The notes below the pieces were generated by a model. That model saw only the letters and a list, made by a program, of their open reading frames with translations. It had not been told where the DNA came from and made no database searches. 64,000 nt of DNA. It comes from Acidobacteriota bacterium (GTDB lineage Bacteria; Acidobacteriota; UBA6911; RPQK01). Where the stretch lies: positions 51,338-115,337 of the forward strand of contig JBHGBF010000001.1 in NCBI GenBank assembly GCA_041946865.1, read 5' to 3'. Below, one piece after another: positions 7,290 to 38,714 of the stretch. The position numbers and the translations under genes are program-made. How positions within the stretch are numbered: position 1 is the stretch's first letter; each line of letters begins with the position of its first letter.

Positions 7290-7376
7290 GCAAAGATTGC
7301 CTGCCTCGCCCGCCCCGCCAGGCCTCAAAGTCGCGAGCAGGGGTTGTTTCAAGGGGGCCTCACGAGCGGCGCGAAG

Positions 7377-7392
7377 TGGCATCCAACTTGCT
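7377..7392 (+). promoter_or_regulatory. Candidate sigma54 promoter upstream of flgF: TGGCAT-CCAAC-TTGCT
   Basis: tggcatccaacttgct matches TGGCAC-N5-TTGCW. Same hexamers as the flhA site. The predicted TSS is only a few nt before the flgF ATG (7407), which is unusual. Confidence 0.4.
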
Positions 7393-7406
7393 AAGACCCA
7401 GAGTGT

Positions 7407-24574: not shown

Positions 24575-25455
24575 GGACGAAGTCCATCGGCTGGATCAGC
24601 ACGCCACTGCCGGTCGGCCAGCTCCGCCCCGGCGGGAGTCTTGGCGCCGCTGCCATCAGCGGCCAGGCCGTCGCGGACCAGTCGAATGGCCTTTTCAGCG
24701 TCCCGGGGCAGCCAGCAGTGACCGTGCGCGTACTCGGGGCCCCTTCCATCCAGATCCAGGTGGAATTCGAGCAGGCTGACCTGCCACCGGTGGACAGCCC
24801 TGAGCCAGACAGCGGTCTGTGCCGTGTGATCCGACCAGCCAACCGGACAACGGTAGCGTTTCCGGAGGGTTTCGATAGCCGAAAGATTCGCTTCCTGGAT
24901 GGGGGTCGGATATCCGGAAACGCAGTGCAGCAGGAGCAGGTCCGAGCAGCCCGCGCAGCGGAGCGCCTGCACCGCGTGGTCGATCTCACCGCAATCCGCC
25001 ATGCCGGTAGAGAGGACCACTGGCTTGCCAGTCCTTGCGCACGTCTCGAGCAGCTCATCCCAGAGGAGTTCGTAGGATGCGATTTTCAGAAAATCGACCC
25101 AGGGGACAAGCTCGGCCACGCCTTCCAGATCGAAGGCCGTGCAGGAGAACAGGAGCCCTCTGCGGCGAGCCAGCTCCGCCAGTTCAGGGATAAACGACAC
25201 CGGGAGCTCCCACTCCCGGCGCTGCCGATGGTCCTTACTCGCTGCGAGGATTTCCGGTGCGAACAGGCGATCCAAGCGGAAGAGCTGGAATTTGACCGCA
25301 TCACAGCCGATCCGCGCGGCCGTCTCGACGAACTCGAGGCAGCGCCCAAGGTCCTGGCGGTGATTGCTGGACACTTCTGCAACGAGCATCGGACCTTTGA
25401 CTGCGTCTATCCAGGATTGGCTGCTATCGAGCACTTCAGTGTGATCGGTAGGCAT
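24523..25455 (-). CDS. pseI: NeuB-family nonulosonate synthase (PseI-like), apparently lacking the C-terminal SAF domain
   Basis: LVAEVSSNHRQDLGRCLEFVETAARIGCDAVKFQLF...KIASYEL...VGWSDHT is the NeuB TIM-barrel domain. 310 aa. No SAF/antifreeze-like tail recognised. Confidence 0.7.
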   Translation of the reverse strand: MPTDHTEVLDSSQSWIDAVKGPMLVAEVSSNHRQDLGRCLEFVETAARIGCDAVKFQLFRLDRLFAPEILAASKDHRQRREWELPVSFIPELAELARRRGLLFSCTAFDLEGVAELVPWVDFLKIASYELLWDELLETCARTGKPVVLSTGMADCGEIDHAVQALRCAGCSDLLLLHCVSGYPTPIQEANLSAIETLRKRYRCPVGWSDHTAQTAVWLRAVHRWQVSLLEFHLDLDGRGPEYAHGHCWLPRDAEKAIRLVRDGLAADGSGAKTPAGAELADRQWRADPADGLRPCRQVRQQWEREARCRQ

Positions 25456-26632
25456 GGGTCACCTTTCGAACGGCTTCGATGACATCGCAGACGTCGCGCT
25501 CGGTCATGGCCGGAAAAATCGGCAGGGAAATGATTTCCGAATACGCTTTTTCGGCTACCGGGCAGTCACCCGGACGCGTGCCAAACCGTTTCTGGTAGTA
25601 GGGATGGAGGTGCACCGGGATATAGTGGACATTCACCCCGATTCCTTCTGCCCTCAGGGCTTTGAAGATCTGGTCCCGGCTCGCTCGGAAGAAATTCGGA
25701 TCCAGGCGGATCACATACAGGTGATGAGCATGATTCGCCCAGGGCGCCCGGCCGGGCAAACGGACCCCCGCAATTTCACGAAAGGCCTCGTCATAGCGGC
25801 CGGCAATCTCGCGTCTTCTCGAAATGTAGGCCGCCGCCCGCTCGAGCTGTACCCGTGCCAAGGCGCACTGAAAGTCGGTAAGCCGGTAGTTGAAACCCAG
25901 ATCCACCATTTCGTAAAACCAGGTGCCGTTCTCCATCCGCTGCCGGTGATCCTGATCGATTCCGTGGTTGCGAAACCGGCGAATCGTTCGGGCCAGATCC
26001 GGTTCATCCGTGGTGACCACTCCGCCCTCGCCCGAAGTGATCAGCTTCACGGGATGCATGCTGAATGCCGTGGCCCGCGCCAGTGTCCCTACGGGGACAT
26101 CGCGATAGCCGGCGCCGAGCGAGTGACAAGCGTCGGCGATGAGAAACAGGGAATGGGACCGGGCCAGGTCGTGTAACACGCCGTAGTCGCAGGGCTGGCC
26201 GGCGTAGTCCACCGGAATCACGGCTTTGGTACGCTGCGTGATGCGCCTCTCGACGTCGCGCGGGTCGATCAGCAAGGTGTCGTCCAACACGTCGGCAAAC
26301 ACCGGTCTTCCTCCTTGGAAGACTACTGCGTTGGCCGTCGCCGCAAACGTCATCGAAGGGACGATCACTTCATCTCCTTCGCCGATTCCAGTTGCCTTGA
26401 CACAGGCGTGAAGCGCCGCCGTTCCGCTGCTGACAGCAACCGCATGCAGGGCCCCCGTCAGCCGCGAAAATTGGGTTTCGAAGGCGTCCACGTCGGGCCC
26501 GGTAGTCAACCATTCCGAGCGCAGCACGCGAGAAACCTGGTCAATCTCACCGTCTCCCAGCCAGGGTCTCCCGTAGGGGAGAAACGCCTCCCGGACCGGT
26601 TTACCTCCCTGCAGAGCTAATCGGGATGACAT
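25436..26632 (-). CDS. pseC: DegT/DnrJ/EryC1-family aminotransferase, PseC-like (UDP-4-keto-6-deoxy-sugar transaminase)
   Basis: Start MSSRLALQGGKPVREAFLPYGRPWLGDGEI at 26632. PLP-lysine region AFSMHPVKLITSGEGG. 398 aa. Immediately downstream of pseB. Confidence 0.8.
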   Translation of the reverse strand: MSSRLALQGGKPVREAFLPYGRPWLGDGEIDQVSRVLRSEWLTTGPDVDAFETQFSRLTGALHAVAVSSGTAALHACVKATGIGEGDEVIVPSMTFAATANAVVFQGGRPVFADVLDDTLLIDPRDVERRITQRTKAVIPVDYAGQPCDYGVLHDLARSHSLFLIADACHSLGAGYRDVPVGTLARATAFSMHPVKLITSGEGGVVTTDEPDLARTIRRFRNHGIDQDHRQRMENGTWFYEMVDLGFNYRLTDFQCALARVQLERAAAYISRRREIAGRYDEAFREIAGVRLPGRAPWANHAHHLYVIRLDPNFFRASRDQIFKALRAEGIGVNVHYIPVHLHPYYQKRFGTRPGDCPVAEKAYSEIISLPIFPAMTERDVCDVIEAVRKVTHAYRSH

Positions 26633-27653
26633 TGGTCTTCTCTCCCACCAGCCGTAACAGTTCGTCTTCCGACAACCACCGCTCGTTGGTGTCACTGGTG
26701 AAGGTGAAACCGGCTGGTGTGGGCTGACCGTGGACTCTCTCGGTCCTTCCCCAGCCGGAATACTGCGGCTCGATCACGAACAGATCGTCGGTGGCGACCG
26801 TGTGCCGAGCCTCGTCGAAAGAAATGAGGACTTCGTGCAGTTTTTCGCCCGGCCGGATGCCCGTGTACTCGATCCGACAGTCAGGTGCGATTGCCCGCAC
26901 GATGTCAATCACGCGCATGCTTGGAATGCGGGGAACAAACACTTCGCCGCCTTTCATCAGCCCCAGGGAGCGCACCACCACGTCCACCGCCTGCTCCAGC
27001 GTCATCCAAAAACGGGTCATCCGGGGATCGGTGACGGTGATCCTGCCGGTCGCCCGTTGCGCCGTGAGCAGGGGAATGAAACTCCCGCGACTCCCGATCA
27101 CGTTTCCGTACCTCACGCAGCTGAACCTGGTAATCTTCCCCCCGGCATAGGCATTCCCCTGGACAAAGAGCTTTTCCGCGCACAGCTTGGTGGCCCCGTA
27201 CAGGTTGACGGGGTTTACCGCCTTGTCGGTACTGAGGGCGATGACCTTGGGAATCCGGCAGTCGATGGCAGCATCGATGATGTTCTGGGCGCCGATGACA
27301 TTCGTCTTCACCGCCTCAAACGGGTTGTACTCGCAGGCGGGCACCTGTTTGAGAGCGGCGGCATGGACGATAACGTCGATTTCTGCCTGAAAGGCACGAT
27401 ACAGGCGGTCCTTGTCCCGGACATCGCCCAGAAAGAAGCTCACCCGGGGGTCCTGCAGCTGCAATGCCAGCTCGTGTTGTTTCAACTCGTCCCGGCTGAA
27501 AACGATGATTCTCTTGGCGCGATGCCTCTCCAAGGCAAGCCGAATGAATTCGCGTCCGAACGATCCGGTCCCCCCCGTCAAGAGCACGGTCTTCCCCCAA
27601 AGGGGCTTTTCTGAAGGGCCATGGACTTTGGTGGTAGTCGTTGCCTTTTTCAT
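26601..27653 (-). CDS. pseB: UDP-GlcNAc 4,6-dehydratase (inverting), PseB-like
   Basis: KTVLLTGGTGSFGREFIRLAL...STDKAVNPVNLYGATKLCAEK is the PseB/FlaA1 SDR signature. 350 aa. Confidence 0.85.
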   Translation of the reverse strand: MKKATTTTKVHGPSEKPLWGKTVLLTGGTGSFGREFIRLALERHRAKRIIVFSRDELKQHELALQLQDPRVSFFLGDVRDKDRLYRAFQAEIDVIVHAAALKQVPACEYNPFEAVKTNVIGAQNIIDAAIDCRIPKVIALSTDKAVNPVNLYGATKLCAEKLFVQGNAYAGGKITRFSCVRYGNVIGSRGSFIPLLTAQRATGRITVTDPRMTRFWMTLEQAVDVVVRSLGLMKGGEVFVPRIPSMRVIDIVRAIAPDCRIEYTGIRPGEKLHEVLISFDEARHTVATDDLFVIEPQYSGWGRTERVHGQPTPAGFTFTSDTNERWLSEDELLRLVGEKTNVIPISSAGR

Positions 27654-27676: not shown

Positions 27677-29602
27677 CTAAATCCAGGCCTGCCGTGGGCC
27701 CCCTTGCTGTCCCTGCAAAGCGCGAATCGCCTGGTTCAGCAACGGGAGAAACCGGCGCAGGTTCCTGGAGACTTCCAGATAGAACTGGTGTGATTGACGG
27801 CTGGTCTCCGAGTCCGAACCATCCGTCTCCTGGTTGCTCAGGATCCCGTAAATGGTCGAAAGCACGTAATGAAGCGGTTGCTGGTACTCCTTTGAGCGTT
27901 TCAGTGAACGGTCCACGGCGCTGAGCTGGCGGAGAAGGCTCGAAACGTTGCAGGGCTTTTGGTGCTCGACATGTTCGACCAGAACGGAGCTGAGACGGGC
28001 AGCCTTAGTACACTGTCCAGCCAGCCGATTCAGACGCCGCTCGACGTCCTTGAGGAAGTTCACGAGTCCTTCAATGTTGAAGTGATGTCCTGCGAAGAGG
28101 GTTTGCTCCGCTTCCGTGATCCTCGCGGAAATGTCATTGACACAATGCCGGGAGAGTGCCTCCTTCAATGAAAGGAGGAGCGTTCCTTTGATCCGTGCGC
28201 CCCCTTCCGTTGCATCAATGACGGTCCGTTCAGGGCCGATCGCCCGGATCACGCTCTCAAACCAATGCAGAAAAGATAGGAGTTGCCGGTCCGTCAGCAC
28301 CGGATTCCCGTCGATACCCTCAACCCAGGCCTGGTGCCGGCCCGACCAGACGCGCCAGTCCTTCTCGTCGGGATCACTTTCCCCCGACGCCTGTCCGTCA
28401 GTCCATCGGCGGGGGATCTTGTAACGGAAATCTTTCCCGTGGGTCCCGCGCGCGTGGCTGAGCCCCCCTGTGTACGCCAGGTCTTGCCCGATCAGAATGA
28501 TGGGATCACAGCCGAAGCGGTAGGCCAGAGAGAGACACACGTTGGCCACCGAGGGCCCGATCTTCACCAGTCCGACCGCCGTGCTGCTGAAGCGCTCCAG
28601 CCAGAGATTGCCCTCATTGATCAGCATCAGCGCCTTTCGACCCTGATACTCTTCCGCTACCCGGTAATGAACGGCTGGATCGAAAACAAGGACGGGCTCC
28701 CTGACGGTGAGGCCCCGAAAATGCGACTCGTAGTTGGCCTCGTTTCCATCGAGAGTGACGATGAAATCAGGAGCGATCGACTTCTCAGCGAGAAGCCGGG
28801 AAGTCGTTCCGGTGGCGATGATAACCGCCTTGCCTTTGGCCTGGTGCAGCAAATCCACGTTCCTGCTCAGGGAAGGGCCGGCCGAGACGATAATGGCTGG
28901 CAGACCCGCAAAGCAGCCGAAGATCGCACCCACCGGCGCCGCTTCGGCGAGGCGTGGCAGATTCCTGAGCAAGTTGGTCTGCCAGAGCCAGGCTGCGCTC
29001 AGCACCGTCGCCCGGTCTACCAGCAGGCTGTTCAATTCGCGGCTGATCTCCGTCGAAAAAGCCTGGAATTCACCGGCCAGAAGCCTGGTATAAACCGGAA
29101 GCTTGAGATACCGGATGTTTTTCCACCGGCTGCCGTGAACCACGTATTGTTCTTTGAAAGAATCCCAGTCACGGCACAGGACGACGCGCGGATCGGCCAG
29201 GGCACGTTGAGCCACTGGAAGGGCACGGGCCTCCGCCAGGATCTCGTCATCGGGTTCAACGACAAACACTACGTTCCCGGTCCCAGCCTTCCTCAGCAAC
29301 GCCTCGAGGTGGTAGCCTGACCCCAGCCCGAAGAGCACCAGCAGTTCCTTCTCGCCGAAACTCTGGCTCGACGCCCACTGCGATGCTTCCTCTTGGGGAT
29401 CGTAGCTGCTGTTCAGGAAGACCGACTGACCGCCACGGCTGACTCTTAGTACCGGGTCACCATTCCGAGCGCTGACAACTTTGCATGTCCCCGCAAGCAT
29501 CTCAGTTTGTCCCTTTAGCGAATTCGGCCGACCAGCTGTCAAGCAGCGGCCGCAGCTCGTAGCAGACAATGTCGCCGGCCAGGCCATAGTCCTGATGCTC
29601 AA
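27677..29602 (-). CDS. maf: Motility accessory factor (Maf/DUF115) flagellin nonulosonate glycosyltransferase-like protein
   Basis: 641 aa. DUF115/MAF_flag10-like core (GLPAIIVSAGPSLSRNVDLL...AVIIATGT...PDFIVTLDGNEANYE...ILIGQDLAYTGG). Adjacent to pse genes and flagellins. N-terminal ~35 aa may not be translated. Confidence 0.6.
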   Translation of the reverse strand: MSIRTMAWPATLSATSCGRCLTAGRPNSLKGQTEMLAGTCKVVSARNGDPVLRVSRGGQSVFLNSSYDPQEEASQWASSQSFGEKELLVLFGLGSGYHLEALLRKAGTGNVVFVVEPDDEILAEARALPVAQRALADPRVVLCRDWDSFKEQYVVHGSRWKNIRYLKLPVYTRLLAGEFQAFSTEISRELNSLLVDRATVLSAAWLWQTNLLRNLPRLAEAAPVGAIFGCFAGLPAIIVSAGPSLSRNVDLLHQAKGKAVIIATGTTSRLLAEKSIAPDFIVTLDGNEANYESHFRGLTVREPVLVFDPAVHYRVAEEYQGRKALMLINEGNLWLERFSSTAVGLVKIGPSVANVCLSLAYRFGCDPIILIGQDLAYTGGLSHARGTHGKDFRYKIPRRWTDGQASGESDPDEKDWRVWSGRHQAWVEGIDGNPVLTDRQLLSFLHWFESVIRAIGPERTVIDATEGGARIKGTLLLSLKEALSRHCVNDISARITEAEQTLFAGHHFNIEGLVNFLKDVERRLNRLAGQCTKAARLSSVLVEHVEHQKPCNVSSLLRQLSAVDRSLKRSKEYQQPLHYVLSTIYGILSNQETDGSDSETSRQSHQFYLEVSRNLRRFLPLLNQAIRALQGQQGGPRQAWI

Positions 29603-29891
29603 GCGCCTCGACCAGAGGCTTCAAGGTCAGGGGCAACGCGGAGAGATCCAGCGACAATCCCTTTTCAGCCTGCACGGGATGGGTCAGCTGGATGGCCTCT
29701 GACACGGTTCCCAGACCTTCGAGGAGTCGCTTCAGCAGTGCGATTCCTTCATCGAATTGCCCCAACTGGAAGTGGGTGTGAACTTCTACACACGCCCGAC
29801 TCAGCTCCTGGTTGTAAACCTGCGCCTCCGAGATCGCCTGGAGCATCAGTTCTGTATCGTTCTGATTTCCCATCGCCATTGCCCTTCGCAA
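29502..29891 (-). CDS. Hypothetical protein, first ORF of the glycosylation operon (overlaps maf 5' end by ~100 nt in another frame)
   Basis: 129 aa helical ORF with no recognised motif. Coding status uncertain. Confidence 0.35.
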   Translation of the reverse strand: MRRAMAMGNQNDTELMLQAISEAQVYNQELSRACVEVHTHFQLGQFDEGIALLKRLLEGLGTVSEAIQLTHPVQAEKGLSLDLSALPLTLKPLVEALEHQDYGLAGDIVCYELRPLLDSWSAEFAKGTN

Positions 29892-30010
29892 GCCGCGTGC
29901 CAGCTTTACGGCGGACGCTGGTAACCGCGCACTGCCGCCATAAAATCTTCGGAATTAAACATTTGTCGCGGCTCTTTAGGACAGGTGGGAGCTTTGGCTC
30001 GCAATGACAG

Positions 30011-30040
30011 ATTCTTGACGCTTTCGCTGGAGTTCTTGAC
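30011..30040. promoter_or_regulatory. Direct repeat TTCTTGACG x2 (21-nt spacing) in the divergent promoter region between glycosylation operon and Fe-ADH/NeuB operon
   Basis: Reads attcttgacgctttcgctggagttcttgacgatttcatgac. Repeat starts are two helical turns apart. Contains TTGACG -35-like hexamers. Confidence 0.3.
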
Positions 30041-30148
30041 GATTTCATGACCCGACGTGCCTTTAACCGCTTGTGTCTGAGGTGGCCTCCTGGCGGCCAA
30101 TCCTGTGCGGAGGGATTCTAAGCGGGGTGGGGGCGTTGCCTCGGCAAT

Positions 30149-30166
30149 TAGGGCAAGGATTTTGCA
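30149..30166 (+). promoter_or_regulatory. Possible sigma54-type promoter (gGGCAaG-N4-TTGCA) immediately upstream of Fe-ADH gene
   Basis: Reads agggcaaggattttgcat. GG and GC are spaced 12 nt apart as in the TGGCACG-N4-TTGCW consensus. The -24 hexamer is imperfect. Coordinates approximate (+/-2). Confidence 0.3.
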
Positions 30167-30180
30167 TCGTACCATCTCGC

Positions 30181-31356
30181 ATGAGTACACACGACCCTTT
30201 TCGCTCGAATCTTCCCGGCATGCCGGCGTTGTACGTTCCCACCCGGATATACGCGGGGGCCGGGGCATCCGAGGGTCTGACAGCGATCCTTCGCTCCCTG
30301 GGCCGGAGCAGAGTTCTTCTGCTGTCCGGAAAACATTTCTCTCGAAACCTGGCGGAGCAGATCCAGGAGCGCCTGAAGAGTCCGGGCATATCGTGCGAGT
30401 TGCTGTCAGGGATTGATTCGGAGCCGGATTCGGACAGCCTCGACCGAATGTCGAGCGAGGTGAAGGCCCGGTGTCCTGACGCGATGATCGCCGTAGGCGG
30501 GGGCAGTGTCATGGACGCGGGAAAATACCTCGCCGCCTGGACGGCCAACGGCGGCGGGTGTGTCGATTACGAGAAGGGCCGTTCCTTCGATCGACCCGGC
30601 GTCCCTTTGATTACGGTCCCCACCGTGGCGGGAAGCGGCAGTGAAGTGACGCCTTACAGTGTCATCAACTCGAGCGCCACGGGAAGAAAGTTCACTCTGC
30701 GCAGCGCGCGACTCTGGCCCTTCGCCGCCTGGGTAGACGCCGGGCTGACCGCCGGGGCGGGGGCAAACGTGACTATCCCGCCCGCTCTGGATGCCTGGAC
30801 ACATTGCCTTGAATGCCGGCTTAGCCGGGAGTCGACCGGTTTTTCCGACCTGTTCGCGGGTGAGGGTATGGCGCTGATTCAGCAGTGGCTCGGGAAGACG
30901 CTCCATGACGGCGCCGACCTCGAAGGCCGGAGTGCTCTCTCCCGGGCGTCGATCCTCGGAGGGATCGCCATCTCCCACGTCCGTACCGGCATGGTCCACA
31001 CCCTTTCGGTGGCGCTGGCGCCGCATGTAAAGCTGGCGCATGGCTGGTTGAACGCGATCATCCTTCCCCATGTTTTGAACTTCAATAAGGGATGCTACGG
31101 GATGAAGCTGCGGAGAATCGCGGCGGACTTGTCGGGCCAGCCGGCCGGGGACGACGACCGTGCCATTGCGGCCATCCGGGAATGGCTCGACACACTGCAG
31201 GTGCCCAGAGATCTGGCCTCGCATCGGCCACCCGGCCTTTCAGTCGTGAGGGATCGAATCCTCGAGGATCAAGGCCTGCCCGCGGTCAGCATGAGGCCGT
31301 TCACAGCCGGAGACGTCGAAGAGATTGTCAATTCCGTTCTTGGCAGGAGCAGATGA
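30181..31356 (+). CDS. Iron-containing (group III) alcohol dehydrogenase family protein
   Basis: Start MSTHDPFRS. Fe-ADH motifs (AVGGGSVMDAGKYLA, PTVAGSGSEVTPYSVIN) and metal-binding His region HVRTGMVHTLS. The upstream part of the listed ORF (30073) is probably untranslated. Confidence 0.75.
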   Translation: MSTHDPFRSNLPGMPALYVPTRIYAGAGASEGLTAILRSLGRSRVLLLSGKHFSRNLAEQIQERLKSPGISCELLSGIDSEPDSDSLDRMSSEVKARCPDAMIAVGGGSVMDAGKYLAAWTANGGGCVDYEKGRSFDRPGVPLITVPTVAGSGSEVTPYSVINSSATGRKFTLRSARLWPFAAWVDAGLTAGAGANVTIPPALDAWTHCLECRLSRESTGFSDLFAGEGMALIQQWLGKTLHDGADLEGRSALSRASILGGIAISHVRTGMVHTLSVALAPHVKLAHGWLNAIILPHVLNFNKGCYGMKLRRIAADLSGQPAGDDDRAIAAIREWLDTLQVPRDLASHRPPGLSVVRDRILEDQGLPAVSMRPFTAGDVEEIVNSVLGRSR

Positions 31357-31898
31357 ACACAATCGTCAAACCATCAGGAGGCACTGGGCGAACCGATCAG
31401 AAAGGACGCAGGCTGAGACCGTTCATCGGCTCGGCCCGTGAACTCGCCGCCGGACTTGGGCGCTACTGCGACTGGTATTCCGGAGTGCCGGACAGCATGT
31501 TTCGCCGGGTCCTGCCTTCTCTTGTCCCGTACTATCGCGCGGCGAGGGAAAACCATGCTCTGGGCATGGCATTTGGTGCGCGCCTGGGGGGCAGCCGCCC
31601 CTGCGTGCTGATGCAGAACAGCGGGCTGGGGCTGTCTTTGGACGTGGCTTTGGGGCTGTTCGGGCTCTACCGCCTCGGTGCCCTCGTCGTGGTGGCTCAG
31701 CGTGGCGAACTCGAATGGGAAGAGCCTCAGCATAAAGATTGGGGCGAAAAGACAGTCCCCGTATTGAGGGCCATGGATATACCCGTGTATGACTTCGAAC
31801 AGGGTAGACTTGACGCCCTGGCTCTGGCTGCCGGGACTGCGTTTGAGGATGACCGGATAGCGGTGCTTCTGATTCACAGGGGAAACATCGATGAATAG
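31353..31898 (+). CDS. TPP-dependent decarboxylase, alpha (N-terminal PYR-domain) subunit; sulfopyruvate/phosphonopyruvate decarboxylase-like
   Basis: Start MNTIVKPSGG, overlapping the Fe-ADH stop (ATGA). 181 aa. Has the split-decarboxylase architecture (ALGMAFGARLGGSRPCVLMQNSGLGLSLDVALGLFG). Confidence 0.6.
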   Translation: MNTIVKPSGGTGRTDQKGRRLRPFIGSARELAAGLGRYCDWYSGVPDSMFRRVLPSLVPYYRAARENHALGMAFGARLGGSRPCVLMQNSGLGLSLDVALGLFGLYRLGALVVVAQRGELEWEEPQHKDWGEKTVPVLRAMDIPVYDFEQGRLDALALAAGTAFEDDRIAVLLIHRGNIDE

Positions 31899-32367
31899 GA
31901 TGGAAGCAATCCGCTACATCCTGGCCAGGCACCCCGGTGCAGCAGTGATTTTCTGTAACGGGCTGAACTCGAGAGAAGCGAGTCATCTAGCCCACCGGCC
32001 AGGGAACTTCTATCTGTTGCACGGGATGGGCGAAGCCTTGTCAGTGGGATTGGGCCTTCGCCAATCCCGGCCGGATCTCGAGGTCGTGGTTGTTGACGGA
32101 GACGGGAATGCGGCCATGGGGCTGGGTGCATGGACGAGCCTTCCCTGCGACGGCGTCCATTACTACGTGCTGAAGAACTCGTGCTACGAGACCACTGGCG
32201 GCCAGGCCGTCCCCGATCTTCCTTTCAGTCACGATGCGGTCCAGGTCATGGTGGTCGACCCGGGGATCACTGGGACCCCTAATCCACCACCCGCAGCACA
32301 GATCAAACTTGAGTTCCAACAATGGCTGGCCGATAGAGGCCGGCAGGAGAAGGGAATCAATGAGTGA
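31891..32367 (+). CDS. TPP-dependent decarboxylase, beta (TPP-binding) subunit
   Basis: 158 aa. TPP-binding motif GDGNAAMGLG and LHGMGEALSVGLG. 8-nt overlap with the alpha subunit. Confidence 0.6.
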   Translation: MNRMEAIRYILARHPGAAVIFCNGLNSREASHLAHRPGNFYLLHGMGEALSVGLGLRQSRPDLEVVVVDGDGNAAMGLGAWTSLPCDGVHYYVLKNSCYETTGGQAVPDLPFSHDAVQVMVVDPGITGTPNPPPAAQIKLEFQQWLADRGRQEKGINE

Positions 32368-33508
32368 AAAGCGTTTCACGGTCGGCCACGTGGAGATCGG
32401 GGAAGGACTTCCCTGTCTGTTGGTGGCAGAGATCGGCCTGAATCATAACGGCAGCCTGTCGCTGGCGCATCAACACATCAGTGCCGCCGCCCTCGCGGGC
32501 GCCAGCATGGTGAAGTTCCAGAAAAGGTGTCCTTCCGAACTGGCCACCGCGCCGTTTCTGGACGCCCCCTTCCCCAAATCACCGCTCTTCGGCAGGACCC
32601 AGCGGGAAGTACGCCAGCGACTGGAGTTTTCGGAGGTGCAACTGAAAGAATTGCAGGAGCATGCTGCCGAGCTGGGGCTGATGTTCTCCATGTCGGTCTT
32701 CGACATGCCGAGTCTTCAGGCGGCACTGAACCTGAAGCTTCCAGTCCTTAAAATCGCCAGCCACAGTATAACCAACGCTCCTTTGCTGGAAGCGGCTGCC
32801 CGGTCGGGTGTGCCGATCATTCTGAGCATGGGGGCTGCCACCTGGGAAGAAAGGGACCAGGCCTTCGAAGTACTCAGGGATTGCGAGTTGGCTCTTCTCC
32901 ATTGTGTCAGCGCTTATCCTTGCCCAGACTCGCTGGTGAAGCTGGACACGATCGCGGAGCTGAAACGGCGGTACGGAAGGGTGACCGGCTACAGCGGTCA
33001 TGAGACCGGCGTCGATGTGTCTGTCGCGGCGGCACTCCTGGGTGCGTCGCTGATCGAGCGACACTTCACGCTGAACCGGTCCATGGTTGGGCTGGACCAC
33101 GGAATGAGCGTGGAACCGGCCGAATTCGCCGAGATGGCACGCCGGATCAGGCGAGTCGAGAAAGTCCGCGGAGTGTCGGAGGGCATCGTTTATGAAGAGC
33201 TGGCCTCGCGGAGGAACTACCACGTCTCGATCTGTACGCGTCGCGCGCTTTCGAGCGGACGCGTGCTGCGGCCTTCGGATCTCGTTTGCAAGCAGCCTCT
33301 GATCGACGACCGACAGTATTTCACAGGGCTCGAAATCAAGCACGTGGTCGGTCGGCGGCTCACCCGGAATCTGCCTGCCGATACGCCAATCCCCCGGGAC
33401 GCAGTCGCTGATGGGGATGAGATGGCGCCCCTTGACCGAATCGGCGCATACCCCGTCACGGCAATGCGGGCCAATGGAGAAGGGCTGCGGGCTCGGGGCG
33501 CCAAGTAA
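32360..33508 (+). CDS. neuB: NeuB-family nonulosonic acid synthase with C-terminal SAF domain (second paralog in window)
   Basis: Start MSEKRFTVGHVEIGEGLPCLLVAEIGLNHNGSLSLAHQHISAAALAGASMVKFQKR, the NeuB signature. Also KIASHSITN and GYSGHETG. C-terminal ~70 aa is SAF-like. 8-nt overlap with the upstream gene. Confidence 0.75.
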   Translation: MSEKRFTVGHVEIGEGLPCLLVAEIGLNHNGSLSLAHQHISAAALAGASMVKFQKRCPSELATAPFLDAPFPKSPLFGRTQREVRQRLEFSEVQLKELQEHAAELGLMFSMSVFDMPSLQAALNLKLPVLKIASHSITNAPLLEAAARSGVPIILSMGAATWEERDQAFEVLRDCELALLHCVSAYPCPDSLVKLDTIAELKRRYGRVTGYSGHETGVDVSVAAALLGASLIERHFTLNRSMVGLDHGMSVEPAEFAEMARRIRRVEKVRGVSEGIVYEELASRRNYHVSICTRRALSSGRVLRPSDLVCKQPLIDDRQYFTGLEIKHVVGRRLTRNLPADTPIPRDAVADGDEMAPLDRIGAYPVTAMRANGEGLRARGAK

Positions 33509-33513
33509 CCTGG

Positions 33514-33870
33514 TCAGGCGGAATGGTTGACCCGGGGAGAGGGCGGCTCGCTCTTGACGAGCGCGGCGATGTAGTGCCTTCCGCGTTGGAGCTTCTGGCT
33601 TTCGCGGCCTGTCTCATCCAAGATCGCCTGCCATTCCTGGCGCACCGCGTCGGCTTGCTGGTTGAGATCTTGAAGGAGCCTGGCCAGCCTGCTGCTGTCG
33701 GCGGTGCTGAGCGAGGCGAGATCGGCCGGCGGGCGGGAAATCACAGCAGACAGCGCTCGGACTTGCCGTTGGAGGCGATGGGCTTCCTCCAGAGACCTCT
33801 CCTCCAGAGCGACCCGCAGCTGCGCCAACGTCTGGTAAAGCCTTTCATAGTTTGCGAACATGGCCCTCAT
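33514..33870 (-). CDS. Hypothetical helical protein downstream of fliS (possible FliT-like export chaperone)
   Basis: 118 aa, all-helical, Q/R/L-rich. Occupies the fliD-fliS-fliT position. No motif-level support. Confidence 0.3.
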   Translation of the reverse strand: MRAMFANYERLYQTLAQLRVALEERSLEEAHRLQRQVRALSAVISRPPADLASLSTADSSRLARLLQDLNQQADAVRQEWQAILDETGRESQKLQRGRHYIAALVKSEPPSPRVNHSA

Positions 33871-33873
33871 CTC

Positions 33874-34332
33874 TCAACGCATCGATAGTGTGGACTGGTG
33901 AACGCTGAGGGTGTCTGGATAAGCCGAGGGGACTCTCGGGGCTTTCTGGGTCATCCGATAGGTCTGACGCGCTTCTTCCCAGCCGGAAAGGAGTGTCGAG
34001 AGCAGTCGCACGACTTCCTCGACTGGTTGTGGGTCCTGCTGTGCGTTGGCCTGCGAGATGCGCCGCAGCATATAGGTATAGAGCCGATCAAGCGAGGCTG
34101 CAATCTCTCCGCCCTTCTCAAAATTCAGCGAAGTCTGAAGCTCCGAGATCATAGCGATCGCCTTGTTGATTCGGGCCACGCGTTTTTCAATGTCACCACT
34201 GGCGAAATAAGCGCTTGCCTGACCCAGTTCGCGAATTGCGCCTTTGTAAAGGATCAGGATCAGGTCGAAGGGATCGGCCGTATGGACCTCCATTTCCTGG
34301 TAGCGCAGCGCGTAGTTGTTTGTCAGACCCAT
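33874..34332 (-). CDS. fliS: Flagellin-specific export chaperone FliS
   Basis: NYALRYQEMEVHTADPFDLILILYKGAIRELGQA...RVARINKAIAMISELQTSLNFEKGGEIAASLDRLYTYM is a typical FliS. Confidence 0.9.
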   Translation of the reverse strand: MGLTNNYALRYQEMEVHTADPFDLILILYKGAIRELGQASAYFASGDIEKRVARINKAIAMISELQTSLNFEKGGEIAASLDRLYTYMLRRISQANAQQDPQPVEEVVRLLSTLLSGWEEARQTYRMTQKAPRVPSAYPDTLSVHQSTLSMR

Positions 34333-34363
34333 TGCCTTCTGCTCCTTTCAACTCGGTACGTAA

Positions 34364-36304
34364 TTAGCTTCGGAAAGCGGTCAACTGGCTCAACTGCAGG
34401 GCCAGGCTTGCCTGCAGGGAGTTCAGCTCCTGGAGAGCCTGGCTAGCCCTCGAAAATTGTTCGGTCAGATATTGTTCCCGCAGGGAGAGTCGGTTTTCAA
34501 TTTCATCGATATCGTGCCGGAAAGAACGGATTGTTCCTTCCAGGTTCGTGATGGTGCCGTTGATGGGTCCCTCCAGCGAATCCGTAAAACCGTCAACAAG
34601 GCGCGCCAGCTGCTCCGTGTAACCCAGGGTCACATCAACACTGCCAAAAGTCCCCGTGCCGGCGCCGGTGAACTGCACTCGCAGTCCCTTGACCGGTCCT
34701 TGATCTCCGGTGAGGACGTCGCCGGTTCCCGTTGCGGCGTAGGAGATCGAGGTGACTGTATCCGTGAAGCTGCCCGCTATGTCGAGGCCGCTATCGGAAA
34801 GTCCGGCAGTGCCAATCCCTGTCCCCGCGCCGTCCAGGCTCGAAGTCACGGAAAAGGCCGCGGCCGATCCCTTTTCAACTGAGGTGATGACGAGGTTGTT
34901 CGAGGCTTTCGAGGCGCTTAAGGCCAATCCATCGGCGGCAAGCTGATCGTTGAGGGCCTCGACGACGGCGTCCAGATCCATATCACTGGTGAGATGGACC
35001 ACCGAAGAGCTGGCGCCCCTGGTGAAGGTCAGTGTCTCATCGACGCCGAGGGTTGGACCGATGGCGTTGGGCGAGCTGATACGGGCGGCTTCGGGGGCGG
35101 TCGTGATGTTGACTTGATAGTTGCCCGCCTCGGTGTCGCCGGTCAGACCCAGAAAGCTGACCATGGCATGACTGGTTTCGCCGTTGGCGAGGAACAGCTG
35201 CCTTATCTCGCCGAAGCGCTCATCCAGGTTCTCGTCCAGCGTGGCGGAGTCGATCGTCAGCGTTCCGTCGTTTTCGAGCTTGATGCCGGCGGCGGCGAGA
35301 TTCGTAAGATCACCGGAGAGACCACTGACGGCGCCGCTGACAATGCGGGACATCTGAATCTGAATTGATCGCAGGAGGCTCTCACCCGCCAAGGGTCCGG
35401 CAGCTTTGGCCGCTTCGTTGTATTCGAACTGGCCGTTAATTAAGGTGTAGGCTTTGTTGTAGGCTTCAACGAATTGGGTGATGCTCTCCCGGACACGATC
35501 GGCATCGTTCTCGACGGTGAGGATGACTGGGCCGGTCGTGGTGTCGTGCAGGTCGATCTGGACTCCTTCAATCACGTCCTGGACCTGGTTGCTGCTGCTT
35601 GTAACGGTGAGCCCGTTCACGGTCAGGAGGGCATCCAGTTCGCTGGTTGACCCGATCAGATGCGTCCTCGACAGGGAGAAAGGAGTCAAGCCATCCGACA
35701 GGGTGAGAGTGTTGTTCGAGATCGACAGGGCGTTCGCGGCGCCGGACTCGGAACTGGTGATGGTCAGGCGGTAGCCTGTTCCATCGTTGACGATGGCCGC
35801 CGTCGCCTGTGCCCCGGAGGTGTTGATTGCTCTCTTCAGACCCTCGAGAGTATTGTTGGAGCTGTCTATGGTAATGGTAGTGGTGACATCTCCGACGGTC
35901 AGATCAAAACTGCCGACTCCGATGGCGCTGCTGGAAGAGGCGAAACTCGATGCCGAGGCGAAGTTGTCAAACAAGGCCAGGCGCGTGATCTGCAACTGGT
36001 AGGTCCCCGGTTGCGACTCGCTGGAAGCCGTTGCCGTCAGTTTGGCCTCGTCCGAAGAGATCGCCTTCATGGCTGAGAAGCTCTCCGGGTCATTCAGCCC
36101 ATCCAGGGCGGAAGCCAGTGAACTCAGCTCGGAGTTGAGCTTGTTGAAAGCCTCGATCTTGGCCTGGTAGGTGTTGATCTTCTGGTCGAGCCGGCGGATG
36201 GGCTCGCGCTCCACGTACATGATCTGCTGGACCAGTCCATAGACGTCCAGACCGCCGGCTCCTCCAAGAATCGAGCTGATTCCTCCCACAGTGTCCTCCT
36301 TCAA
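34364..36304 (-). CDS. fliD: Flagellar filament cap protein FliD (hook-associated protein 2)
   Basis: 646 aa. N-terminal GISSILGGAGGLDVYGLVQQIMYVEREPIRRLDQKINTYQAKIEAFNKL and C-terminal QELNSLQASLALQLSQLTAF coiled-coil. T/S-rich central region. Confidence 0.85.
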   Translation of the reverse strand: MKEDTVGGISSILGGAGGLDVYGLVQQIMYVEREPIRRLDQKINTYQAKIEAFNKLNSELSSLASALDGLNDPESFSAMKAISSDEAKLTATASSESQPGTYQLQITRLALFDNFASASSFASSSSAIGVGSFDLTVGDVTTTITIDSSNNTLEGLKRAINTSGAQATAAIVNDGTGYRLTITSSESGAANALSISNNTLTLSDGLTPFSLSRTHLIGSTSELDALLTVNGLTVTSSSNQVQDVIEGVQIDLHDTTTGPVILTVENDADRVRESITQFVEAYNKAYTLINGQFEYNEAAKAAGPLAGESLLRSIQIQMSRIVSGAVSGLSGDLTNLAAAGIKLENDGTLTIDSATLDENLDERFGEIRQLFLANGETSHAMVSFLGLTGDTEAGNYQVNITTAPEAARISSPNAIGPTLGVDETLTFTRGASSSVVHLTSDMDLDAVVEALNDQLAADGLALSASKASNNLVITSVEKGSAAAFSVTSSLDGAGTGIGTAGLSDSGLDIAGSFTDTVTSISYAATGTGDVLTGDQGPVKGLRVQFTGAGTGTFGSVDVTLGYTEQLARLVDGFTDSLEGPINGTITNLEGTIRSFRHDIDEIENRLSLREQYLTEQFSRASQALQELNSLQASLALQLSQLTAFRS

Positions 36305-36639
36305 GCGATCGTGTCAAGGACTCGGCCGTTAAGTTGTTCCACCAACTCACGAAGTTTGCGAAGCTCCTCAGGAGGGATTTCACGCAGCACTTCTCCGGTC
36401 TCGCGGTCGACTACCTGGACGTACAAGCGGTTGGTTTTCTCATCTATCACGACCTGGAGAAGCTCCTTCAACTGAACCGGCTCGACCGGCTTGCGTGCCT
36501 GTTTCGCCCGTTCCGGCATGCCCGGCCAGGCCTTAGGTTCGTCCTCCTGCCTGGATCGCTCCGGCGCGCTCAGACCGACAACACGCCGGGCATCGACCGT
36601 CGAGAACCGTTCAATGTCAAGCTTTACGGGTTCAGACAT
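36301..36639 (-). CDS. flaG: Flagellar protein FlaG
   Basis: 112 aa. C-terminal QVVIDEKTNRLYVQVVDRETGEVLREIPPEELRKL matches the FlaG family. ATGA-coupled to fliD. Confidence 0.8.
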   Translation of the reverse strand: MSEPVKLDIERFSTVDARRVVGLSAPERSRQEDEPKAWPGMPERAKQARKPVEPVQLKELLQVVIDEKTNRLYVQVVDRETGEVLREIPPEELRKLRELVEQLNGRVLDTIA

Positions 36640-36777
36640 GTTCGTATCTCTCGAAATCTTTGAGGGGTCTCAGGGGAAGGATGAAGGGGTCCCAGCCGGC
36701 ATCCGCCCGTTCCCGGCTCGATCCGGCTGGTCGTCACCTTCGTCCTTCCTCCCTCATTCCTCGTGGCTAAGCTGTCG

Positions 36778-37641
36778 CTAACGCAGGAGCGACAGGATCC
36801 CCTGCGGAACGGAATTGGCCTGTGCCATGGCAGCCGTACCAACCTGCGACAGGATCTGGAATTTGGTCAGGTTGGCGATTTCGGCAGCCATGTCTGCGTC
36901 CCGGATCTGAGACTCGGCTGCCGTCAGGTTCTGGATCTGAGACTGCATGATCGAGACGGAATTCTCCAGGCGGTTCATCCGCGCACCCAGCCGGCCGCGA
37001 CGAGTGGCGACCTCATCGATCGCCGCCTCGACGTCGGCAAGCATCTTGGCGGCGGAAGCGGCCCCTGAGGGGTTGATGTTCACCGTGATAGACGAACCGC
37101 TGCTGGTGACGCCGTCGGATAGACCCAGGTCACTGACGTTCAGTGCGCTGGTGTCGAAGCTGATCTGGGCGTTGGCCGGACTCAGGTTCTGAGTGTCTCC
37201 GACGAAGATGTCCCGGGCGCCGGACGAAAAGACCGCGACACCGTTGTACTGCGTGGCCGTGCCGATCCGGTCAATTTCCTGGTAAATCTGAGCCAGCTCC
37301 GTCTCGATCGCCGACTCGCTGCTGCTGTTCGTCGACGATGCGGCCTGAGTCAGAAGCGAGGCGGCACGAGTGAGCAGATTGGACACCTGCCCCAGGGCGC
37401 TGTCAGCGACCTGGATGAAGCCGATGCCGTCGTTGGCATTCCTGACGGACTGCTGCAAAGTCCGGATCTGGCCCCTCAAGCCGTCAGCGATGGCCAGGCC
37501 GGCTGCGTCATCTCCCCCGCGATTGACGCGAGAGCCCGACGACAAACGAAACAGTGTCTTCTGCAGGCTCAGCTGGTTCGCGCTGGATTGCTGTTGCGCC
37601 ACCAGGCTCGATAAGTTGTTGAGAACGCTAAATGCACCCAT
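36778..37641 (-). CDS. fliC: Flagellin (FliC/FlaA paralog 1)
   Basis: 287 aa. N-terminal MGAFSVLNNLSSLVAQQQSSANQLSLQKTLFRLSSGSRVNRGGDDAAGLAIADGLRGQIRTLQQSVRNANDGI and C-terminal QILSQVGTAAMAQANSVPQGILSLLR. S/T-rich variable middle. Confidence 0.95.
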   Translation of the reverse strand: MGAFSVLNNLSSLVAQQQSSANQLSLQKTLFRLSSGSRVNRGGDDAAGLAIADGLRGQIRTLQQSVRNANDGIGFIQVADSALGQVSNLLTRAASLLTQAASSTNSSSESAIETELAQIYQEIDRIGTATQYNGVAVFSSGARDIFVGDTQNLSPANAQISFDTSALNVSDLGLSDGVTSSGSSITVNINPSGAASAAKMLADVEAAIDEVATRRGRLGARMNRLENSVSIMQSQIQNLTAAESQIRDADMAAEIANLTKFQILSQVGTAAMAQANSVPQGILSLLR

Positions 37642-37680
37642 TTTCTTCCTCCTTGAAAGACTCTGGCTTCCTTGCCTGAA
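37642..37680 (-). promoter_or_regulatory. Flagellin-1 5'UTR: GGCAAGGAAGCC hairpin plus GGA-containing SD (CsrA-site architecture)
   Basis: mRNA sense reads CAGGCAAGGAAGCCAGAGUCUUUCAAGGAGGAAGAAA-AUG. Identical GGCAAGGAAGCC element in all three flagellin leaders. Confidence 0.5.
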
Positions 37681-37782
37681 TCGTGTCGACCCGACAATGG
37701 TGATTTACGATCCATGATCCAGGTGCCCCAGCCCCAAGCCCAAGCCGATCATCAATCACCAGCGTCAGGCCAGGGCCCGCGC

Positions 37783-38640
37783 CTACCCGAGCAGAGACAA
37801 GATGCTCTGAGGCACGGAATTGGCCTGGGCCATGGCCGCCGTCCCTACTTGTGAGAGAATCTGGAACTTGGTCAGGTTGGCGATCTCCTCCGCCATGTCG
37901 GCGTCCCGGATCTGTGACTCTGCCGCCGTCAGATTCTGGATCTGGGCCTGCATAATCGAGACGGAATTCTCCAACCGGTTCATACGGGCACCCAGCCGGC
38001 CGCGCCTGGTGGCGACATCGTCGATGGCCGCCTCGACCTCGGTCAGCATGGCGGTGGCGGTCTGCGAGGCGCTGATGGCCACGGTAATGCTGGTTCCGCT
38101 TCCCCCGATTCCGGCCGAGATGCTCAGATTGGCCACACTAAGAGTGCTGGTCGTAAAGCTGATCTCGGCGTTTGCCGCCGTGAGGTTCTGCGTGTCCCCG
38201 ACGAAAATGTTCATCGCCGTGTCGGAGAAGACAGAAACTCCGTTGTACTTGGTGGCCGAACCGATCCGGTTGATCTCGGAGTAGATCTGCCCGAGCTCTG
38301 TCTCGATGGCCGCTTCGCTGCTGCTGTTCGTTGACGAAGCCGCCTGCGTCAGGAGCGAAGCGGCGCGCGTGAGCAGGTTCGAGACCTGGCCCAAGGCGCT
38401 GTCCGCCACCTGGATGAAGCCGATACCGTCGTTGGCATTCCTGACGGATTGCTGCAGAGTGCGAATCTGACCCTTCAACCCGTCGGCGATGGCCAGCCCA
38501 GCCGCATCGTCTCCGCCGCGATTGACCCGAGAGCCTGAAGACAACCGGAACAACGTTTTCTGCAGGCTCAGTTGGTTGGTGCTGGATTGCTGCTGGGCAA
38601 CCAGGCTCGCCAGATTGTTGAGAACGCTAAATCCTCCCAT
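37783..38640 (-). CDS. fliC: Flagellin (paralog 2)
   Basis: 285 aa. Termini nearly identical to paralog 1. Divergent central domain. Confidence 0.95.
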   Translation of the reverse strand: MGGFSVLNNLASLVAQQQSSTNQLSLQKTLFRLSSGSRVNRGGDDAAGLAIADGLKGQIRTLQQSVRNANDGIGFIQVADSALGQVSNLLTRAASLLTQAASSTNSSSEAAIETELGQIYSEINRIGSATKYNGVSVFSDTAMNIFVGDTQNLTAANAEISFTTSTLSVANLSISAGIGGSGTSITVAISASQTATAMLTEVEAAIDDVATRRGRLGARMNRLENSVSIMQAQIQNLTAAESQIRDADMAEEIANLTKFQILSQVGTAAMAQANSVPQSILSLLG

Positions 38641-38680
38641 AGTTTTTTCCTCCTTGAATGAGATAGGCTTCCTTGCCTTC
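38641..38680 (-). promoter_or_regulatory. Flagellin-2 5'UTR: GGCAAGGAAGCC hairpin plus GGA-containing SD
   Basis: mRNA sense reads GAAGGCAAGGAAGCCUAUCUCAUUCAAGGAGGAAAAAACU-AUG. Confidence 0.5.
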
Positions 38681-38714
38681 TATCAGCACGTTAGTCAGAC
38701 GATTCTGCTAACGG

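Follow-up and report, generated by a model that had tools for sequence, protein, structure and literature searches.

In phosphonate biosynthesis, a phosphoenolpyruvate (PEP)-consuming enzyme, the PEP mutase PepM, is followed by a thiamine pyrophosphate (TPP)-dependent decarboxylase, Ppd, and an iron-containing alcohol dehydrogenase (Fe-ADH) of the PhpC, FomC or PsrA type, so that a 3-substituted pyruvate is turned into an aldehyde and then into an alcohol; in one example, RhiE/RhiF (9IZ3), the decarboxylase is split into two chains. The ComDE decarboxylase of the coenzyme M and sulfolactate pathways is likewise split into alpha and beta subunits and in some cases has an Fe-ADH partner, SarD. 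A third group, the nonulosonate synthases NeuB, PseI and LegI, represented by Neisseria meningitidis NeuB (1XUU) and Campylobacter jejuni PseI (8H2C), combines a TIM barrel and a C-terminal SAF domain with PEP- and Mn-binding residues. Here, we describe a rare four-gene cassette that resembles each of these systems in part, located in a 64,000-nucleotide stretch of DNA from an Acidobacteriota bacterium (contig JBHGBF010000001.1, positions 51,338 to 115,337; hereafter the window). The cassette comprises the following genes:

30181..31356, plus strand: Fe-ADH, group III iron-containing alcohol dehydrogenase, first gene of the cassette, 391 aa
31353..31898, plus strand: TPP enzyme alpha subunit (PYR domain), Ppd/ComD-like, 181 aa
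31891..32367, plus strand: TPP enzyme beta subunit (PP domain), Ppd/ComE-like, 158 aa
32360..33508, plus strand: lNeuB, atypical NeuB-family PEP-dependent aldol-type synthase with SAF domain, 382 aa

We tentatively favor a general scheme in which these four genes together constitute a biosynthetic module that is self-contained, needs no PepM and builds an unusual side chain for flagellar pseudaminic acid (Pse), that is, a decoration module for nonulosonic-acid glycosylation. The superfamilies are known, while their combination is undescribed in the literature that we searched: we found no paper in which NeuB, Pse, Leg or flagellin is connected with a Ppd/ComDE-like enzyme. An earlier interpretation made from the DNA letters (the sequence-only reading) had placed the combination outside the described Pse, Leg and Neu pathways, and the literature search agrees with it.

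Gene content and conservation of the cassette

The gene identities given in the sequence-only reading were borne out for all four genes by Pfam and NCBIfam profile matches. As that reading had also noted, the cassette is divergent from a minus-strand operon containing PseB, PseC and a Maf-type glycosyltransferase, and its genes appear translationally coupled: the Fe-ADH/alpha, alpha/beta and beta/lNeuB junctions overlap by ATGA (4 nt), ATGAATAG (8 nt) and ATGAGTGA (8 nt), respectively. The first gene product matched the Pfam domains Fe-ADH (1.6e-39) and ADH_Fe_C (1.1e-23), and its translation contains the motifs GGGSVMD, TVAGSGSE, DAWTH and H..(x)..AHG. With its N- and C-terminal domains, a GGGSxxD nucleotide motif and Asp/His metal ligands, it has the predicted features of a group III Fe-ADH. 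It attained no NCBIfam equivalog and lay similarly near many of them (ErcA, 176 bits; GbsB, 165 bits; Phn_Fe-ADH, 162 bits with a cutoff of 424; 4-hydroxybutyrate dehydrogenase, 146 bits; SarD, 140 bits). Translation could alternatively begin at an in-frame ATG at 30220.

The alpha subunit had no Pfam match. Its best NCBIfam scores were to Ppyr-DeCO2ase (77.6 bits, cutoff 312.5) and sulfopyru_alph (57.4 bits, cutoff 148), and the closest solved structure was RhiE (9IZ3) at 50 bits. The beta subunit matched Pfam TPP_enzyme_C (2.5e-6) and scored 62.6 bits to sulfopy_beta (cutoff 221.5), 61.5 bits to Ppyr-DeCO2ase and 63.7 bits to RhiF (9IZ3_B). Its translation shows a TPP motif, GDGN-x24-KN, and the invariant Glu in the RE(N)H motif of alpha aligns with the RED motif of RhiE. 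With the PYR catalytic Glu in one chain and the PP-domain GDG-x24-27-N motif in the other, the pair is predicted to be a split PYR/PP TPP-dependent 2-oxo acid decarboxylase. Within the alpha family, the motifs VPDS, RENH, QNSGLG and WEExQHxxWG are invariant; where the cassette proteins have VPDS, RENH and WEExQH, PepM-linked Ppd has VPCS, REDxA and DAPEH, and the HGMGE motif of the beta subunits stands in place of its GSMGxA. These differences are clear, yet no substrate can be read from them.

Homologs of alpha were sought among 5.8 billion proteins, 1.84 billion cluster representatives, 185,579 species genomes and metagenomes. The protein search gave 45 close homologs with 42–60% identity, and nine clusters among the representatives matched at E<=1e-30; beneath a sharp score gap lay about 1,000 more distant Ppd/ComD-like proteins. 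By these sequence comparisons, alpha is a separate small family, apart from PepM-linked Ppd. The species genomes contained 13 close loci, and the metagenome scan added 11 further close loci along with about 70 ordinary Ppd-like loci. Controls were 74 ordinary Ppd-like loci, 50 of them at least 5 kb long.

Altogether, about 33 cassette loci from at least seven phyla retain the order Fe-ADH–alpha–beta–NeuB, and recurrence of the four-gene order in so many loci and phyla shows that the arrangement is not due to chance. Carriers include Desulfuromonas acetexigens, Maridesulfovibrio hydrothermalis (locus L109), a Clostridium sp. (L110), Kordiimonas, Acidobacteriota, Desulfobulbia, Desulfuromonadales, Rhodothermales, Gammaproteobacteria and a Bacteroidota-like contig. 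A NeuB paralog follows alpha/beta in 26 of the 26 loci with sufficient downstream DNA, whereas none of the 74 controls has one; there, a PepM homolog was found in 34 of 74 loci (or in 27 of 50 when those shorter than 5 kb are set aside). Almost every related locus has an Fe-ADH homolog with 32–42% identity upstream of alpha; among family loci with sufficient upstream DNA, the gene is missing from L015, L020 and L031. The invariant core is therefore alpha/beta plus lNeuB. Six Acidobacteriota genomes have the cassette on its own, with neither sugar-modifying nor Pse genes nearby, which suggests that it starts from common metabolites.

Some cassettes are broken, two of them, both from Acidobacteriota, by insertion sequences or foreign genes. 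A DDE transposase splits the NeuB gene in L004 (10996..13637), and in L017 (11150..13612) NeuB is displaced by about 3 kb. In Kordiimonas lipolytica (L020), alpha is truncated as well as Fe-ADH being missing. These interrupted or degraded copies suggest that the module is dispensable and decaying in some lineages.

The sequence-only reading had taken alpha/beta and Fe-ADH for the classic pair that makes phosphonoacetaldehyde and 2-hydroxyethylphosphonate (HEP), or sulfoacetaldehyde and isethionate, while noting that no PEP mutase was visible. The second part of this statement holds for the window: Pfam listings over most of it had no PEP_mutase match on called genes, and none of the six frames contains the PepM motif ED[KQR]x5NS, although the same expression finds PepM beside distant Ppd genes in control loci. 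When two PepM open reading frames (ORFs) were compared by tblastn with 107 loci, a search limited to those loci, PepM was found in 0 of 33 cassette loci versus 34 of 74 ordinary Ppd-like loci. A single 30% match in L109 was rejected as PepM; it is an NTP_transf_3 gene matched by the nucleotidyltransferase domain of a Fom1-like query. This query comes from control locus L024 (519..2186), where PepM is fused to an N-terminal nucleotidyltransferase-like domain in a 555-aa polypeptide.

The first part, the classic pair, was not upheld. If alpha/beta were a phosphonopyruvate or sulfopyruvate decarboxylase and Fe-ADH made HEP or isethionate for the glycan, the genome would have to encode PepM or the enzymes that form sulfopyruvate at another site. 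The top NCBIfam matches (Ppyr-DeCO2ase, sulfopyruvate decarboxylase and Phn_Fe-ADH) do point this way, as do the cytidylyltransferases common in cassette loci and a B12-binding radical SAM gene upstream of Fe-ADH in three loci, one of which has a P-methyltransferase family as its nearest relative (see below). However, the scores fall three- to fivefold under the equivalog cutoffs, both for the HEP-cluster models (TIGR03297, 77.6 for alpha and 61.5 for beta vs 312.5; TIGR03405, 162 vs 423.7) and for ComDE (TIGR03845, 57.4 vs 148; TIGR03846, 62.6 vs 221.5). Alpha belongs to its own small clade, with family motifs that differ from PepM-linked Ppd at conserved positions; PepM is missing from the cassette loci and readily found in the controls; and no ComA/B/C-like or cysteate-related families appear in the Pfam listings of seven loci (the window, L005, L006, L027, L028, L109 and L110). 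This explanation would also leave the invariant lNeuB without a role. We consider it very improbable, and the least supported of the readings.

The cassette is thus like the phosphonate trio in its logic, with a PEP-consuming enzyme, a TPP decarboxylase and an Fe-ADH, and unlike it in that the PEP enzyme is a NeuB-family synthase and that its decarboxylase subunits score only 50–64 bits against RhiE/RhiF. Given the absence of PepM and the failed equivalog scores, it is not a member of the PepM–Ppd–PhpC system. It shares with ComDE the split subunits of similar size, and differs in having no sulfopyruvate-forming genes nearby, in its flagellar glycosylation context and in its obligatory NeuB partner.

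lNeuB and the second NeuB paralog

lNeuB matched Pfam NeuB (1.2e-66) and SAF (24.9 bits, cutoff 21), and fell under both equivalog cutoffs, with 246 bits to NeuB_NnaB (cutoff 399.65) and 178 bits to PseI (cutoff 340.25). Residues were numbered by alignment to N. meningitidis NeuB. The protein retains E25, K53, Q55, K129, S132, S154, Y186, S213, H215, E234 (in ERH), H236 and D247, and thereby has the TIM-barrel and SAF architecture of the family together with its PEP- and Mn-binding residues (K53, K129, S132, S154, S213, H215 and H236). Two positions are changed in all 16 aligned cassette members: Glu134 is Ser, and the SAF motif KRPG is KQPL, replacing Arg314 with Gln. The clade comprises at least 120 clusters, and among its 110 scorable members Ser134 (KxxSHS) is found in 108 and Gln314 (KQP) in all 110.

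Both residues matter in characterized synthases. E25, E134 and E234 are catalytic, and in a large survey E134 was replaced by Asp alone (PMC8208679). R314 is the single conserved, essential SAF residue (PMC8208679, citing Joseph et al. 2013), and the Caulobacter crescentus Pse synthase requires R322, its counterpart (PMC7591256). The canonical PseI present in L016 keeps both Glu134 and Arg314, and lNeuB has neither. The clade has features of its own, including KFQKR, SHS replacing SGE, GLDH replacing GPDI, and a conserved inserted loop, FLDAPFxKCPxxGxTQ. With its clade-specific K56/R57, H133 and H248, the enzyme would be suited to an aldehyde that is smaller and anionic. By sequence, then, lNeuB is a NeuB member in its fold and PEP site that lacks two defining catalytic residues. 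In the window, it also carries a C-terminal tail of about 30 aa (33415..33508, plus strand; …GDEMAPLDRIGAYPVTAMRANGEGLRARGAK) that is absent from its homologs, which are 338–361 aa long.

The other NeuB protein of the window is encoded in the divergent operon:

24523..25455, minus strand: sNeuB, short NeuB paralog, 310 aa, NeuB domain without SAF

As had been noticed in the sequence-only reading, this paralog has no SAF domain; NeuB was the sole domain found. It scored 160 bits to NeuB_NnaB and 156 bits to PseI, and retains Glu134. A second NeuB is usual in loci that have PseB/PseC-type genes: sNeuB is found in nine loci, always adjoining PseC or CTP_transf_3; L016 has a trusted PseI in its position (471 bits, cutoff 340), and L029 and L110 have a near-canonical NeuB. 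L109 is the one such locus without a second NeuB within 10 kb. sNeuB is the probable nonulosonate synthase of the Pse pathway.

An alternative is that lNeuB is itself a true synthase, acting on a hexosamine with an unusual N-acyl group for which the Glu134 and Arg314 changes make room, so that the cell makes two nonulosonates; alpha/beta and Fe-ADH would then make the substituent or act elsewhere. The full NeuB and SAF architecture of lNeuB with all PEP and metal residues would fit this, and the Arg314 change has a parallel in eukaryotic NanS enzymes, which also lack this residue (PMC8208679). Furthermore, sNeuB is itself atypical, and L109 has PseB, PseC and a cytidylyltransferase with no other NeuB within 10 kb. 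The association of the genes speaks otherwise: lNeuB is coupled to alpha/beta in 26 of 26 loci and to PseB/PseC in about half, there are no hexose-modifying genes near the cassette in the six Acidobacteriota genomes, and in L016 a bona fide PseI sits beside lNeuB. Loss of the catalytic Glu134 was, moreover, not seen among the surveyed synthases (PMC8208679). We regard this alternative as quite improbable. Since the cassette stands alone in the six Acidobacteriota genomes, lNeuB appears to be tied functionally to the decarboxylase and not to the Pse pathway. The identification of lNeuB as the PseI of the locus was rejected as the main interpretation on account of the residue losses, the stand-alone cassettes and the co-occurring trusted PseI. 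The sequence-only reading had offered two possibilities, two different nonulosonates or a keto-acid-derived unit attached to the sugar; the latter fits best, and the former is weakened by the loss of Glu134 and Arg314 and by the stand-alone cassettes.

Thus, lNeuB shares with NeuB, PseI and LegI the fold and the PEP and Mn residues, and is unlike them in Ser134, Gln314, the new loop, the new basic residues, the constant linkage to a TPP decarboxylase and the presence of a genuine PseI alongside.

Flagellar and Pse genes around the cassette

The window is a flagellar region, with flhA to fliW upstream. The minus-strand operon contains 12 genes, which in the direction of transcription are DUF8042, Maf-type glycosyltransferase, PseB, PseC, sNeuB, CTP_transf_3, HemL-like aminotransferase, aldo-keto reductase, PseG-like, two pyruvyl-transferase-family proteins and ATP-grasp ligase. 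Apart from sNeuB, the features around the cassette are:

16300..17760, minus strand: ATP-grasp amide ligase, LAL_C2 type (Pfam ATP-grasp_3 and LAL_C2)
17757..19013 and 19031..20272, minus strand: polysaccharide pyruvyl-transferase-family paralogs (PF04230; CsaB about 85 bits, cutoff 213)
20247..21446, minus strand: PseG-like hydrolase (PseG 103 bits, cutoff 154)
21443..about 22390, start uncertain, minus strand: aldo-keto reductase
22414..23736, minus strand: HemL-like class III aminotransferase
23753..24535, minus strand: CTP_transf_3 cytidylyltransferase, weakly KdsB-like
25436..26632, minus strand: PseC (TIGR03588 430 bits, cutoff 423.5)
26601..27587, minus strand: PseB (TIGR03589 457 bits, cutoff 408)
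27677..29500, minus strand: Maf-type flagellin nonulosonate glycosyltransferase (PF01973 MptE-like; FlagModPseD domain 87 bits)
29502..29873, minus strand: DUF8042
29874..30180, no strand: intergenic region between the DUF8042/Maf/Pse operon and the cassette, containing a sigma-54-like motif
30152..30166, plus strand: sigma-54-like -24/-12 element GGCAAGGATTTTGCA, 15 nt 5' of the annotated Fe-ADH ATG
33514..39572, minus strand: fliT, fliS, fliD, flaG and three tandem flagellin genes (Pfam), convergent with the cassette

The three tandem flagellin genes (36778..39572, minus strand) are 82–85% identical to each other, and a fourth flagellin-like gene, of flgL type, lies near fliW, upstream of the Pse operon. 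PseB and PseC score above cutoff, and the canonical CMP-Pse set (PseB, C, H, G, I and F) is incomplete in the window. There is no PseH/GNAT match by Pfam in the window, where the Pse operon leaves no gap able to hold such a gene, nor in any of the other six Pfam-annotated loci listed above.

The ATP-grasp ligase had weak NCBIfam matches to the BacD, PylC and DdaF ligases. Homologs with 35–54% identity to it adjoin lNeuB, mostly directly downstream, in 13 loci (L005, L006, L012, L014, L016, L018, L027, L028, L029, L033, L034, L036 and L110, the last from the Pfam table alone) and occur within about 9 kb in L013, L015, L020 and L109. In total, 17 loci, L110 included, have the ligase either next to lNeuB or no more than about 10 kb from alpha, and the ligase at 16300..17760 is the probable partner that attaches the cassette product.

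Several other genes recur. A class I methyltransferase of roughly 300–400 aa lies directly upstream of Fe-ADH in L006, L027, L028 and L109, and a related one elsewhere in the locus in L005, L013, L020 and L110. In the same position directly upstream of Fe-ADH, three loci of Desulfuromonadales/Desulfobulbales type have a B12-binding radical SAM protein (L012, 7368..8882; L014, 7354..8883; L034, about 6360..7574), the best NCBIfam relative of the L012 protein being the Sden_1168/PhpK P-methyltransferase family (247 bits, cutoff 575). In those organisms, the cassette product may accordingly be methylated at an unactivated center. A GH57-like protein of 650–750 aa, absent from the window, lies directly after or near the ATP-grasp ligase in 13 loci (L005, L006, L012, L014, L015, L018, L020, L027, L028, L029, L034, L109 and L110); the example in L006 (13253..15262) matched PF03065 at 51 bits and had no NCBIfam match. 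Its role might be that of a de-N-acetylase or hydrolase, releasing an amine that is then re-acylated.

The two CsaB-like pyruvyl-transferase paralogs, between the PseG-like gene and the ligase, are specific to the window; most related loci have the GH57-like protein in their stead, and many also have a methyltransferase. The decoration here probably differs from that of the relatives. CTP_transf_3, the HemL-like aminotransferase and the aldo-keto reductase form a set with sNeuB and the PseG-like protein that is also present in L006, L018 and L027. This sub-module is outside the canonical Pse pathway; one possibility is that it aminates or reduces an aldehyde intermediate.

In the divergent intergenic region, GGCAAGGATTTTGCA is the sole match in the 64-kb window to GGCAMG-N4-TTGCW. 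By chance, 0.21 matches would be expected, and 19 of 100 shuffled sequences had at least one, so the element is weak evidence for a promoter of this type. If it is real, the true Fe-ADH start is probably the in-frame ATG at 30220. Scans for sigma-70-like sites and terminators stayed at background level, with none in 29874..30180, and an Rfam scan of 29000–34500 gave no match, TPP riboswitch included. No terminator was found between the stop codons of the convergent lNeuB and fliT genes, which are 5 nt apart.

A possible route and its consequences

NeuB-family enzymes join PEP and an aldehyde into 3-deoxy-2-oxo acids, and Fe-ADHs reduce aldehydes. A NeuB-type product is a C3-substituted 2-oxo acid, by analogy the substrate class of the Ppd/ComDE relatives. 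In the route that we favor, lNeuB would condense PEP with a small, probably anionic aldehyde and not a hexose, yielding a 4-hydroxy-2-oxo (3-deoxy-2-ulosonic) acid and phosphate. The alpha/beta decarboxylase would then remove C1 as CO2 to leave a 3-hydroxy aldehyde, which Fe-ADH would reduce; overall, the chain would grow by two carbons and terminate in a 1,3-diol. Decarboxylase before Fe-ADH is the order in the known Ppd/PhpC and ComDE/SarD pairs (RhiEF review, PMC12141560). With glyoxylate as the aldehyde, the intermediates would be 4-hydroxy-2-oxoglutarate and malate semialdehyde and the product 2,4-dihydroxybutanoate (3-deoxytetronate); malonate semialdehyde or succinate semialdehyde would yield homologues. 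We are far less sure of which aldehyde is used than of the general scheme.

An amide ligase is usually next to the cassette, and there is no PseH. We therefore expect a product that retains a carboxylate and is joined to the PseC amine. The ATP-grasp ligase (16300..17760) would amide-link the acid to the free 4-amino group produced by PseB/PseC, which would become N7 of pseudaminic acid, and would in this way replace PseH. sNeuB, the PseG-like protein and CTP_transf_3 would complete CMP-Pse, and Maf would transfer it to flagellin.

Related chemistry is known from other systems. The O1 antigen of Vibrio cholerae contains 3-deoxy-L-glycero-tetronyl perosamine, and this tetronate is 2,4-dihydroxybutanoate, the predicted product; the known V. 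cholerae route uses an ACP, an acyl-ligase and reductase-type Rfb proteins, not NeuB and a TPP enzyme. 2-Oxoglutarate decarboxylase and the Fe-ADH 4-hydroxybutyrate dehydrogenase convert 2-oxoglutarate to succinate semialdehyde and 4-hydroxybutyrate. The route proposed here would be like this one in the TPP-dependent alpha-decarboxylation of a dicarboxylic 2-oxo acid and the action of an Fe-ADH on an omega-carboxy aldehyde; the 2-oxoglutarate route, unlike ours, has a SucA/Kgd/MenD-type TPP enzyme and no PEP-aldol step, and belongs to central or fermentative metabolism. In Treponema denticola, the flagellin Pse carries a 2-methoxy-4,5,6-trihydroxyhexanoyl group (PMC13439194), and this glycan is a precedent for 3-deoxy-aldonic N-acyl groups on Pse. 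By analogy, the cassette would share with the N-acyl sugars of T. denticola and V. cholerae a short hydroxylated 3-deoxy acid that is amide-linked to a sugar amine, with methyltransferases commonly adjacent. None of the 47 closest alpha homologs was assigned by its source to Treponema, most of these matches being without an organism name.

The reactions could also run in a different order. The decarboxylase would act first, turning a common 3-substituted pyruvate (oxaloacetate, hydroxypyruvate, 3-phosphohydroxypyruvate or sulfopyruvate) into an aldehyde, from which lNeuB would make a short 3-deoxy-2-ulosonic acid with PEP. The part of Fe-ADH would be to reduce the 2-oxo group or to buffer the aldehyde. 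The outcome would be a 3-deoxy-aldonic acid, O-methylated in many loci and linked to Pse by the ATP-grasp ligase, as in T. denticola. The products of Ppd and ComDE are indeed small anionic aldehydes (PMC12141560), and basic residues newly acquired by lNeuB lie close to its aldehyde pocket. In such a sequence, the PEP-derived carboxylate survives as a substrate for the ligase, and the methyltransferase of the eight loci named above would fit the 2-methoxy group of the T. denticola acyl chain (PMC13439194). On the other hand, group III Fe-ADHs normally use aldehyde/alcohol pairs and not 2-oxo acids, so that the most conserved accessory gene is left without a clear role; the cassette has no gene for producing sulfopyruvate or phosphonopyruvate; and the acidic motifs of alpha do not suggest an anionic 3-substituent. 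We consider this order rather unlikely.

The favored order, lNeuB before the decarboxylase, has its own difficulties. The ATP-grasp ligase needs a carboxylate, so either the aldehyde must carry one or the order of the steps differs, and the acidic motifs of alpha (WEE, VPDS) do not obviously suit a dianionic 4-hydroxy-2-oxoglutarate. Gene content, conservation, the residue changes and the lack of PepM and PseH are observations; the order of the steps and the aldehyde are inferred from family chemistry alone, and the attachment point is an inference as well. The gene distribution also weighs against the scheme in places: Fe-ADH is absent in L015, the ATP-grasp gene of the window is 13.6 kb from the cassette, and there is no ligase within 10 kb in six Acidobacteriota loci. 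sNeuB is non-canonical, being without SAF and not retaining Asp247, and in L109 (M. hydrothermalis), with no second NeuB within 10 kb, lNeuB could be the sole synthase.

With more reserve than for the general scheme, we suggest as a possibility that lNeuB and the Ppd-like decarboxylase carry out a previously unrecognized PEP-driven two-carbon homologation, from an aldehyde through a 4-hydroxy-2-oxo acid and a 3-hydroxy aldehyde to a 1,3-diol, which would supply new nonulosonic-acid substituents as well as a free metabolite in Acidobacteriota. As part of the same suggestion, the route would be evolutionarily parallel to PepM–Ppd–ADH, with C–C rather than C–P products. In a stranger variant, the decarboxylase may act on the nonulosonate itself, giving a 2-deoxy-octose or octitol.

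Current automatic annotation calls the TPP subunits "phosphonopyruvate/sulfopyruvate decarboxylase" and lNeuB "sialic acid synthase" or "N-acetylneuraminate synthase family protein", which would give false phosphonate-cluster and false sialic-acid calls in genome mining. If the proposed scheme is true, it would provide the first function for a NeuB subfamily of at least 120 clusters that is without two supposedly essential residues, and the first for a sister family of Ppd/ComDE that works without PEP mutase. It would also mean that flagellar pseudaminic acid carries a new acyl decoration, and that the Pse precursor is N-acylated in a PseH-independent, ATP-grasp-dependent manner.

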